This document shows positions 3,161 through 19,507 of a stretch of 64,000 bases of DNA, piece by piece. The notes beneath the pieces were generated by a model. The model saw nothing but the letters and a program-made list of their open reading frames with translations, had not been told where the DNA came from and made no database searches. This DNA is from Eledone cirrhosa (Eukaryota): contig OZ024741.1 in assembly GCA_964016885.1 (NCBI GenBank), forward strand, positions 389,422,001-389,486,000. The letters run 5' to 3'. Position 1 is the stretch's first letter; every line of letters starts with the position of its first letter. Both the position numbers and the translations under genes were made by a program.

Positions 3161-3305
3161 CTGCCACAGTTTGAAGCTCCACCGGGTCATAGTAGAATAG
3201 CCAATATGGTCCCATTTTTTCCAGTACAGAAGAACTTTATGATGTTTGTTCATTCACATGCCCTTGGCTATGATTATGACACTTTCCTAGAAGATGATAC
3301 AGAAA
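3161..3305 (+). CDS. Internal coding exon of a membrane-bound tyrosinase/TYRP-family gene (end of the luminal domain)
   Basis: Acceptor tttttgacag|3161 and donor 3305|gtaagt. Open frame LPQFEAPPGHSRIANMVPFFPVQKNFMMFVHSHALGYDYDTFLEDDTE matches the TYR/TYRP signature APIGHNR..MVPF.P......F......LGYDY. Confidence 0.85.
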
Positions 3306-3781
3306 GTAAGTAATATTCATGTTTTCAATTTTTTTTTCTAAACCAGCTATTCTGAAACGAGAGGTACTTGGTTCTTAGATAAGAAATTTCAAATCTTGGA
3401 GAGGAGGCACAATATTATCCAAAGGAGAAATTGGGGAGGAATCCAGATTGGGAAAGAATGGTGTAGATTCTGTATATATCTAATAAAATAGAAATAGAGC
3501 TAACTTTAAGGGAGATCACAAATTAACAGTTCACAAAAACACTACTATTTCAATGTTAATCATATTTAGATCTATACAATTATTGAAGTTTGAAATGTTA
3601 ATTTGGTGCTCGGGCGAAAAATGACTAGATGACATGGGAGAGGAATTGAGAAGAACTGGAGTTGCAGGGTGGGGATGTGACCTGGATTCCTAAAAACCAT
3701 TATTGTAAATCAAAAAGAATTATTTTCCAGTTTTGTTTTTAAAACGTTATATAAATTTTGATATTAATAATGTCATCTCAG

Positions 3782-3826
3782 GACAGGGTGACAGGGTGAC
3801 AGGGTGACAGAGTGACAGGGTGACAA
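3782..3826. repeat. 8-bp minisatellite (gacagggt)x5
   Basis: Direct inspection. Confidence 0.9.
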
Positions 3827-4289
3827 GTTAGCAGAAACTGCGGAAATCAGACTAAATGCCTTGTAATAGTTTCGTTGATCCATGTTTATATATTTGTAAT
3901 TTATATCAAGTTTGGTAAACAATAGCATCGTTGATTACAGATTTTCTATGGTCCAACAGTTGATTCATTGCATTCTTGAGAGCAAAAGAGACAAAGCAGT
4001 ATTTGTAAGTCAGTGTAGAACAAATGTTGCAAGGGCCTTTATTCGTAGAGCCCAGTATTTTCATTATCTAACCAATATGTATATCGATAAAAGATATACA
4101 TAAACATAAATAAGTGGATACAAACATATTTCACAATATTCGGCTGTTTTTGTATCAAGTCACTACACTCCTCTTTCTGTTCTGTTACCACCTCTTACTT
4201 CAACTCATCAGCCTCTTCCCCTCTCTTTCATTCTTTGTCTTTCCCTTTTCTTTCATTTAAAATGTCGTTTTTATTATTTCTTACTAAAT

Positions 4290-4660
4290 TACAGCCCTTT
4301 GCATTCTGAGTTCAAATCCTGCCGAGTTTAGCTTTGCCTTTCATCCTTACAGGGTCGATAAAATAAAGTAGAAGTCATGCACTGGGGTCGATTTAATTGA
4401 CTTTCCCCTCCCCAAAAATTGTTGGCCTTGTGCCTAAAGTTGAAACCATATTTATTGTTATTATTATCGTCAAGGGATTGGCAGTATCGGTAGAGAGTCG
4501 GACGCCATGCTTTCCAGCATAGTTACGTCCCTTTACGGTCTGAGTTCAAATCCCGTCACGGTTAACTTTGCCTTTCATCCTTACGAAGTCGATAAAATAA
4601 AGTACCAGTAATGTACTGGGTAATTGCTGGCCTTGTGCCAAAAGTAAAAACAATTATTAT
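4290..4660 (+). mobile_element. Two tandem copies of the abundant tRNA-headed SINE (Nin/Deu-like central box)
   Basis: gagttcaaatcc B-box; ctttgcctttcatccttacggggtcgataaaataaagtaccag core; (att)n tail. Confidence 0.85.
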
Positions 4661-4749
4661 CGACGTGTTCGTATTGGCGTGTGTAAGTTTGTCATTTTTC
4701 ACTTGTTTACAAAAGCTTTTTTGCCAATTTTTTTGTCACAAACTGTTTA

Positions 4750-17727: not shown

Positions 17728-17983
17728 CGTGCGTATGTATGTGTGAGTGTGTGTATGTATATATATATAAATATGTGTGTGTGTGTGTGTGTGTGTGTGT
17801 GTGTGTGTGTGTGTGTGTGTGTGTGTGTGTGTGTGTGTGTGTGTACATATGTGTGTGTGTGTGTGTGTGTGTGTGTGTACATATATGTGTATATATATAT
17901 GTGTATATATATATATGTACATATATATATTATATGTGTGTGTGTTTGTGCAATATTCGTAAGTCATGCCTTTATTTTGTTTT

Positions 17984-18222
17984 GTGTTACTCAAAGTAGT
18001 GTCAATCGGTGTGGTCATGTGTATTATATTCACATGTAGTTTTATGTTACTCAAAGTAGTGTCAATCGGTGTGGTCATGTGTATTATATTCACATGTAGT
18101 TTTATGTTACTCAAAGTAGTGTCAATCGGTGTGGTCATGTGTATTATATTCACATGTAGTTTTGTGTTACTCAAAGTAGTGTCAATCGGTGTGGTCATGT
18201 GTATTATATTCACATGTAGTTT
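17984..18222. repeat. 60-bp tandem repeat x4, nearly identical units
   Basis: Unit tgttactcaaagtagtgtcaatcggtgtggtcatgtgtattatattcacatgtagtttt(a/g). Confidence 0.97.
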
Positions 18223-18729
18223 TAAAGAGATGACGTTTAGTGTGGTGTCGTTCACAGTCATTTCTACACTAGATCATGAACATAATAGAATAGGTGAATG
18301 TTATTACACTATAAAATTAGGGACTATGCATATAAGCAGTACCATTGTTGGCAGAGACGTAACTAGGGAGAATAGTGGCTATGGCAAGAGGTGAAATTGC
18401 ACCCCTGCCTAGACATCATATATGAGGTATGCCAATGTGGTGTACTATGAGGTATGCATATTTTGTTGCGTAGTTGTTAACACTGTATTTTTACCTATGG
18501 GCCTAATAATCTATATAAATGGTTTAATGATCCAGCCACCAATGTCCATTTTATCCATGATAATCAAAGACGGATCATACATCATAGAGTTTCGTTTTTC
18601 ACTCTCCAACGATAGCTTATCTGACTTTAATAGAAAGTACTCTTAGTTCAAGTGGTGCTAATGACATGGTTGTTTTACCCTAGTTACGCATCTGCCTGTT
18701 GGAGAAGAAACGTTTGGTTTCTATGTCAT

Positions 18730-18850
18730 CTAGCCATGTGATGGACTAGCATCCTGTCCTGGGAGAGGTCATGTACTCTCTGTCGCTTCACGCCACGGAA
18801 ACTGGGATAAGCACCAACCAGATGAGCCTCCTGGCTCGAGACAGACTTTA
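18730..18850 (+). mobile_element. SINE 3' half
   Basis: gatggactagcatcctgtcc...gtcgcttcacgccacggaaactgggataagc...ggctcg resembles a tail widespread in metazoan SINEs. Confidence 0.55.
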
Positions 18851-19271
18851 TACTTGTTTTTAAACAATAACAGCAAGAACTGGGTTAGTAGATCTGACAA
18901 AGAAGGGTGAAAATTCATTTACAAGACAGGCTGTTTTGCCAAGTAAAATATTTATTAGATCAGTGTCTTTCAAAATAGGTTCCTTGGAAGCCCAAATTTC
19001 TGTGAAAAAATATCTTGTGGTTCCACGAGATAAAGTGTTCTTTAATAAAATATTGAATAATAATGATAAGAATGATAAATTTTCATATGAATAAATGTCC
19101 CTTTCCAAGACAATTTTTATTTCATTTTTAAAAAATTACGGTGGAGCGGACTATCCGTAAAATATATGTATGGGTTACGCGAATTTTGGAAAATTATATA
19201 AGGCTTCTGAATGATTGTATTAGATGAACAGAGGAACATGTTATATATTTTTTTTTTTAATCATTTTACAG

Positions 19272-19507
19272 AAACATCACTGAGTCCAGTTTGGATAATT
19301 GTTATTGTCGAAGCTGGTCTTTTACTGCTCTTGCTGGCCATCATCATCGAACTGGCACGCACACAGAAACGTCGTTTACCAACAAGAAAAGTGAGTTCTA
19401 CATCGGTTCACAACAACGTCACCGCTGACACAGTTGATGAAGAACAACCCATATTCCAACCGGGAAACCCAAGCTACAGAACCTATAATGCTGCCGAGAA
19501 TTCATAG
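19272..19507 (+). CDS. Terminal coding exon: transmembrane helix plus cytosolic tail of the tyrosinase-like gene
   Basis: Poly-T acceptor ..cattttacag|19272, phase 1, joins in frame to 3305. TM VWIIVIVEAGLLLLLLAIIIEL, basic stop-transfer QKRR, tail DEEQPIF..NPSYRTY. Confidence 0.8.

Follow-up and report, generated by a model that had tools for sequence, protein, structure and literature searches.

The window analyzed here is a 64,000-nucleotide (nt) stretch of the Eledone cirrhosa genome (contig OZ024741.1, numbered C2:389422001-389486000 in the 3.0-Gb assembly), and its forward strand carries the last two coding exons of a membrane-anchored member of the tyrosinase family. Together with three exons upstream, they form a 120-kb gene whose coding frame of 1626 nt contains no internal stop and encodes 541 residues (Table 1). 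The five exons measure 148, 962, 135, 145 and 236 nt and the introns 48.9, 47.1, 6.4 and 16.0 kb, 4/4 with GT-AG borders. Exon 4 is preceded by the acceptor TTTTTGACAG and followed by the donor GTAAGT, while exon 5 lies behind the acceptor CATTTTACAG and its TAG stop ends at 19507. An earlier note on this DNA had joined these two exons in phase 1 and predicted copper-binding exons 5' of the window: our model gives the same peptide across the join, and the three upstream exons supply both copper sites.

A genome-wide search with the Pfam tyrosinase family returned 94 matches, of which two lie 5' of the window on the strand of the gene. Exons 1 to 3 were obtained by reading the 200 kb upstream, exon 1 through its cysteine pattern (two matches in 148 kb). 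Exon 4 alone matches residues 402-441 of human TYRP1 (E = 4e-4); Pfam searches with the window exons alone gave nothing for exon 4 and, for exon 5, a weak TMEM51 match that we discarded as reflecting the transmembrane helix only. The genome contains a single full match to exon 2, and intron 1 contains a gap of 200 N. The gene is intact and single-copy. A second match to exon 4 (C2:288099478-288099579, L002) was rejected as a paralog, with no other exon found within 30 kb; this orphan 98-nt look-alike is 87% identical, lacks splice context and is probably a dispersed fragment.

The junction between 3305 and 19272, also proposed in the earlier note, is matched by contigs of a relative that skip intron 4. 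In runs X1 and X3, one contig each (502 and 1515 nt) matches window positions 3159-3282 and 19283-19517 with 34 letters in between, exactly the spacing predicted by the spliced model (23+11). At their loose ends, the relative's contigs resemble exon rather than intron sequence, and in 4/4 runs the 5' loose end agrees with the last letters of exon 3. DNA runs X5 and X6 contributed no useful coverage. The relative is about 89-90% alike, its runs come from one study and their RNA status is a guess; junction contigs were paired between two analyses by length and depth. Among 155 candidate acceptors past 3340, five give a hydrophobic open frame and only 19272 resembles the orthologs. Full-length orthologs of 543-545 amino acids (aa), carried by Logan contigs no longer than 4093 nt, also point to spliced transcripts. 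Intron 4 harbors, at about 10900-16400 of the window, several kb of AT-rich microsatellite with a G+C content of 18-25%.

Domain layout and active site

A hydrophobic stretch at residues 9-27 ahead of QFPR is predicted to be a signal peptide, judged by hydropathy only. It is followed by a cysteine-rich region with a weak EGF_laminin match; in the protein as a whole, 14/14 family cysteines are shared with vertebrate TYR and DCT. The histidines of the two copper sites, CuA (H185, H211, H220) and CuB (H368, H372, H395), follow the H-(n)-H-(8)-H and H-(3)-H-(n)-H patterns, and the luminal part carries seven N-glycosylation sequons. The transmembrane helix, 15/19 positions of which are invariant among five distinct cephalopod sequences, leads into a cytosolic tail of 52 residues. 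The ortholog matches Pfam PF00264 (E = 1e-35). Our structure model is that of the O. bimaculoides ortholog, built from 125 sequences, with a predicted local distance difference test (pLDDT) score of 84.8 and the helix at residues 469-499. The best match to the predicted fold is human TYRP1 (E = 2e-34, TM-score 0.86 over the target), which ranks first only because no vertebrate TYR structure is among the matches. Two cysteines encoded by exon 2, C200 and C293, occur in 9/9 cephalopod orthologs and 0/123 vertebrate rows, and perhaps form an extra lineage-specific disulfide.

At CuB, 11/11 cephalopod rows (five distinct clusters) carry a His-His pair (HH), as do 119/119 vertebrate TYR and 13/13 other invertebrate rows, while 4/4 DCT rows carry Leu-His (LH). 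The nearby loop has changed: four positions at which TYR never varies (M, V, S, N), which we take to be M374, V377, S380 and N382 in human TYR numbering, read F, L, A and F/Y in 11/11 cephalopod rows, so that F-x-x-L-x-x-A-x-[FY] is fixed in cephalopods. CuB counts come from an anchor read-out, the anchor being present in 87 of 143 representatives; alignment tallies at positions 212 and 369 were excluded, being misaligned in 40 TYR rows. Among those 87 other representatives, F is found in 6 and L in 5, and an aromatic last loop position in none, nor in any of the 119 TYR rows. Ala at the S380-equivalent was dropped as a special trait, since 49/87 share it. The Val placeholder given for every gamma group by Aguilera et al. 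(2013; PMC3658974) is Leu in 11/11 cephalopod rows, in the column that we infer to correspond; with Val in just 48/87 of the others, the trait is not strict. The wider loop, S-x-L-x-x-A-A-[FY]-D-P, resembles that of hemocyanin units, a likeness best read as convergence. These features suggest that the enzyme binds copper and that its pocket is altered and bulkier, copper being favored over zinc because HH is ancestral and DCT ancestry is absent.

Table 1. Exons and protein features of the E. cirrhosa gene; window positions count from the first letter of the 64,000-nt stretch
Feature	Position	Strand	Description
Exon 1	C2:389321490-389321637, upstream of window		Signal peptide and first cysteines
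Exon 2	C2:389370534-389371495, upstream of window		Cys-rich region, CuA, first two CuB His
Exon 3	C2:389418638-389418772, upstream of window		CuB loop and third CuB His
Exon 4	window 3161..3305	+	Residues 416-464, end of luminal domain, APPGH..MVPFFP...LGYDY
Intron 4	window 3306..19271	+	15,966 nt, phase 1, GT-AG; LINE-like (long interspersed nuclear element) fragments, AT microsatellite of several kb
Exon 5, coding part	window 19272..19507	+	Stalk, transmembrane helix, cytosolic tail, stop
Transmembrane helix	window 19292..19348	+	Residues 471-489; hydropathy up to 3.0
EEQPIF	window 19439..19456	+	Residues 520-525; probably a variant acidic dileucine signal of the ExxPLL type
NPSYRTY tyrosine block	window 19466..19486	+	Consensus [ND]P[ST]Y.TY; both tyrosines conserved

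Orthologs and family placement

Orthologs of 541-545 aa are present in O. bimaculoides (XP_014779110.1), O. sinensis, O. vulgaris, Argonauta hians and, as a partial sequence, Sepia pharaonis, along with decapodiform-like proteins; luminal identity ranges from 69 to 83% across Octopus, Argonauta and decapodiforms. All cephalopod sequences fall into one cluster of a 50%-identity library, where the next match is a nemertean protein at 41%. No other mollusc appears among the named homology matches, most of the 150 representatives being without names.

Three trees agree on a single cephalopod clade (100/100). Its grouping with nemertean and flatworm proteins is loose (87-91% bootstrap, not starred, long branches), and it lies outside the chordate clade of TYR, TYRP1 and DCT (100/98-99, two trees). 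Gamma proteins split from alpha-type tyrosinases and hemocyanins (100/99, with eight partial rows of the same genome). Approximately unbiased (AU) tests rejected the grouping of cephalopod sequences with DCT (p = 2.6e-7), with TYR (p = 1e-4), with TYRP1, and with TYRP1 and DCT together (p = 5e-5); the tests of DCT/TYRP1 descent gave p values of 2.6e-7, 5e-43 and 5e-5. Trees were built under LG+G4 without a mixture, using 12, 8 and 5 of the 119 TYR rows. The two TYRP1 rows lacked names and were identified by motif, and the Capitella and E. berryi sequences, taken from paper supplements, were left out of the trees. On the strength of these trees and AU rejections, the gene is, by sequence, a spiralian gamma-subclass co-ortholog of vertebrate TYR, TYRP1 and DCT together. 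The idea of a membrane-bound gamma-subclass gene in a cephalopod, put forward in the earlier note, is thus borne out by architecture, trees and TYRP1-like fold. Its term "TYRP-like" does not hold in the sense of TYRP1 or DCT, given HH in place of LH and the AU rejection of that grouping.

The earlier note had treated such a gene as a surprise in a mollusc, which the literature does not bear out: the gene's existence, and a cephalopod ortholog with a transmembrane helix and eye expression, are already published (PMC6678240, PMC12240821, PMC9839350). In 2019, XP_014779110.1 was drawn with a signal peptide, EGF, tyrosinase domain and transmembrane helix, and was called "DCT" (PMC6678240); the start of that protein is identical to the ortholog sequence compared here. 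RNA sequencing of O. bimaculoides placed its expression almost exclusively in the retina and not in skin (PMC6678240). In E. berryi, Tyro-1 (EB00850), which we equate with this ortholog by eye from the probe sequence, belongs to an orthogroup of TYR, TYRP1 and DCT and marks a ring round the pupil; Rab32 is detected in 76% vs 14% of cells for its cluster, and Hps1 in 28% vs 4% (PMC12240821). The top marker of Loligo chromatophore cluster 8 is annotated XP_014779110.1 and stands beside TDO and Rab32 (PMC9839350). Mollusc tyrosinases have otherwise been regarded as alpha: Aguilera et al. (2013) list no mollusc among gamma proteins in the portions available, 8/9 tyrosinases are alpha in an argonaut preprint, and a 2024 paper still uses that label (PMC11667028). 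What is new here is the gamma co-ortholog placement, the conservation of the tail motif and the cephalopod-specific CuB loop. The placement corrects the published "DCT" label, and coleoids contradict the common view of molluscs as having secreted alpha tyrosinases only.

Tail motif and proposed role in pigment granules

The tail motif EEQPIF, including E520 (-4 Glu) and P523 (-1 Pro), is found in 10/10 full-length cephalopod sequences and recalls the melanosomal acidic dileucine form, ExxPLL with -4 Glu and -1 Pro (PMC3418312). In five sequences, 16/23 positions of the motif block are invariant vs 10/29 in the juxtamembrane part; relative to the contig of the relative, codons 520-541 hold 0 amino-acid changes and codons 490-519 hold 8 (23 of 26 differences listed). 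By these comparisons, constraint on the motif block exceeds that on the juxtamembrane part. Shuffling the tail yields [DE]xxP plus a hydrophobic pair in 1% of cases, the pattern having been picked after seeing the tail. The nemertean ortholog has DETPLV and Capitella EAEQPLL at the same place; hagfish TYR has ELQPFL. The earlier note had proposed a sorting tail made of this block and NPSY. The conserved block does resemble a melanosomal signal, but its sorting role was overstated, and NPSY does not hold as part of the signal: NPxY is found in 5/10 cephalopod sequences, octopods only, the other 5/10 having DPSY, and the tail contains no YxxPhi. The C-terminal PDZ motif that we take to be typical of TYRP1 is absent as well. 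On balance, we lean toward EEQPIF being a granule-sorting signal.

We consider it fairly likely that this gene encodes a pigment-granule copper oxidase of octopod eye and head pigment cells: a single, membrane-anchored gamma tyrosinase, with the tail as its probable sorting determinant. The N-glycosylated type I membrane protein would pass through the Golgi, AP-3 or AP-1 may recognize EEQPIF as a weak signal of the dileucine type, and the tail would direct the enzyme to pigment granules of the eye and head pigment cells, in whose lumen small phenolic precursors would be oxidized to a quinone or quinone-imine. Several observations weigh against this proposal. At four TYR-invariant positions the pocket is unlike that of melanogenic TYR, so that activity may differ or be weak; the transcript is found in just 28-35% of marker-cluster cells; and the expression evidence comes from other species. 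As for the tail, the pair IF falls outside the [DE]xxxL[LI] consensus and is found in 0/119 vertebrate TYR tails (LL 79, LI 34, LV 1, II 1, FL 1, none 3), the distance of EEQPIF from the membrane is about 30 residues vs a TYR median of 20 by the same measure, and the loose motif pattern, present in 7/28 transmembrane-bearing distant relatives, is not constant in the family. If the IF motif works, the acidic dileucine consensus would be wider than described.

Two readings of the pigment made by such an oxidase were weighed. Conversion of tyrosine or DOPA to melanin is possible, if somewhat short of an even chance, and melanin is the default reading for the pupil ring. A part in turning 3-hydroxykynurenine into ommochrome, direct or through dopaquinone, is more tentative and would rest on TDO co-expression, xanthommatin-containing cells, an unsure terminal enzyme in insects, tyrosinase chemistry and the altered pocket. 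In its specific form, the protein would be the terminal oxidase (phenoxazinone synthase) of ommochrome granules, converting the o-aminophenol 3-hydroxykynurenine to xanthommatin, for which the insect counterpart is the peroxidase Cardinal. The Loligo marker beside TDO comes from embryo heads with chromatophores and no visible ink sac (PMC9839350), and chromatophore pigments are xanthommatins. Such reactions are within the capability of tyrosinases (PMC6301705), and the cephalopod-fixed CuB loop with its aromatic end counts in favor, though the Ala within it is common elsewhere. The D. pealeii chromatophore proteome includes two proteins named "tyrosinase-like [O. bimaculoides]", subclass not given, with Rab32 and kynurenine formamidase; tyrosinase stands in the whole-chromatophore table, and no entry was seen in a granule table in the portion available. 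The predicted fold is shared with an o-aminophenol oxidase (9t62), but that match is weaker than those to bacterial tyrosinases. Neither TDO nor other ommochrome genes were found among the E. berryi marker rows listed, and expression almost confined to the retina in O. bimaculoides counts against this reading too. We regard a terminal ommochrome oxidase as rather unlikely. The fuller scenario is doubtful too, and slightly less probable: cephalopods would have kept a vertebrate melanin-type membrane tyrosinase, rewired its pocket and made it the last enzyme of xanthommatin synthesis, sorted by ExxPIF to ommochrome granules. If true, the enzyme family of vertebrate melanosomes, the Rab32 pathway and their sorting logic would be making a different pigment. 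The gene is a single-copy candidate for the enzyme finishing ommochrome in cephalopod eyes and chromatophores. A literature search found no paper on the cephalopod tail motif or on a link between this enzyme and ommochrome, a weak negative, since most subscription journals lay outside the search.

Two other roles are harder to reconcile with the data. Ink-gland tyrosinase moves in trans-Golgi vesicles to premelanosomes (reviewed in PMC4052311), which would suit a tailed membrane enzyme making melanin for ink melanosomes. However, orthologs are reported to be expressed in the retina, a ring round the pupil and pigment cells of the head (the O. bimaculoides tissue set may or may not include ink gland), and an ink-sac "tyr" primer (PMC13739555) reads VVVPYW, with 4 mismatches to a secreted alpha gene of this genome and at least 7 to the present gene. 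An ink-gland role is thus without support and improbable. A zinc dopachrome tautomerase, as the 2019 label implies, would agree with Ala at the S380-equivalent, seen in 4/4 DCT, and sequence does not reveal the choice of metal with certainty (PMC5855855). That label was assigned by BLAST to human DCT plus a domain search, in a study whose own tree sets protostome apart from deuterostome sequences (PMC6678240), and both HH in place of LH and the AU rejections of the two DCT-containing groupings make this identity very improbable. The pigment-granule copper oxidase remains our preferred reading.

Neighboring loci and comparison with known systems

Elsewhere in the window, a single-exon-like open reading frame (ORF) at 40226-41263 (+, ATG at 40289) encodes 324 aa, cysteine-rich and hydrophobic at both ends, which may be secreted and perhaps anchored by glycosylphosphatidylinositol. 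It matches no Pfam family; Atlas leads at 0.86-0.87 (unnamed, DUF19-named and DUF1397 clusters) are below the reliable level, and two distant paralogs lie at C13:12657410 and C3:103383257 (E = 4e-8). Broken LINE-like reverse transcriptase/endonuclease frames were recognized by eye at 1023-1934, 6793-8281, 26035-26922, 31262-34773, 36801-39286, 41848-43019, 46982-49206 and 53025-55595. The genome also holds other type-3 copper loci: about 17 tyrosinase-domain exons arranged in tandem at C4:94.30-94.82 Mb, of which three were read as secreted alpha with Thr-rich tails; arrays of hemocyanin-like units at C1:173.74-173.91 Mb (seemingly three copies) and C26:21.93-22.02 Mb (seemingly two, in opposite orientation); and a divergent hemocyanin-like gene at C27:64610-69863 (L024, L067), on a long branch beside hemocyanin units.

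The closest known counterparts are the one-to-one orthologs O. bimaculoides XP_014779110.1, E. berryi Tyro-1 and S. pharaonis TYR (CAE1280736.1). Divergence from them is at the species level only: the Octopus ortholog also has 541 aa, shares 83% luminal identity and carries the same CuB loop and tail block. Published labels vary (DCT, tyrosinase), and tail and pocket are undiscussed in the portions available. With vertebrate TYR, the protein shares the signal peptide, the Cys-rich region, six His, HH, one transmembrane helix, and ExxP plus a hydrophobic pair followed by tyrosines. It differs from TYR in its 36-41% identity, its non-sister position, the loop F/L/A/F for M/V/S/N, IF for LL and the extra cephalopod-only cysteine pair. 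Vertebrate TYRP1 and DCT share its fold, cysteine pattern and C-terminal luminal motif but have LH and form their own chordate clade (100/100). The subclass-defining architecture is common to gamma tyrosinases of flatworms, nemerteans, annelids, priapulids, hemichordates and amphioxus (PMC3658974), from which the Leu placeholder sets this protein apart. Finally, the secreted alpha tyrosinases of molluscs and the hemocyanins share its type-3 copper center, yet belong to a separate clade.

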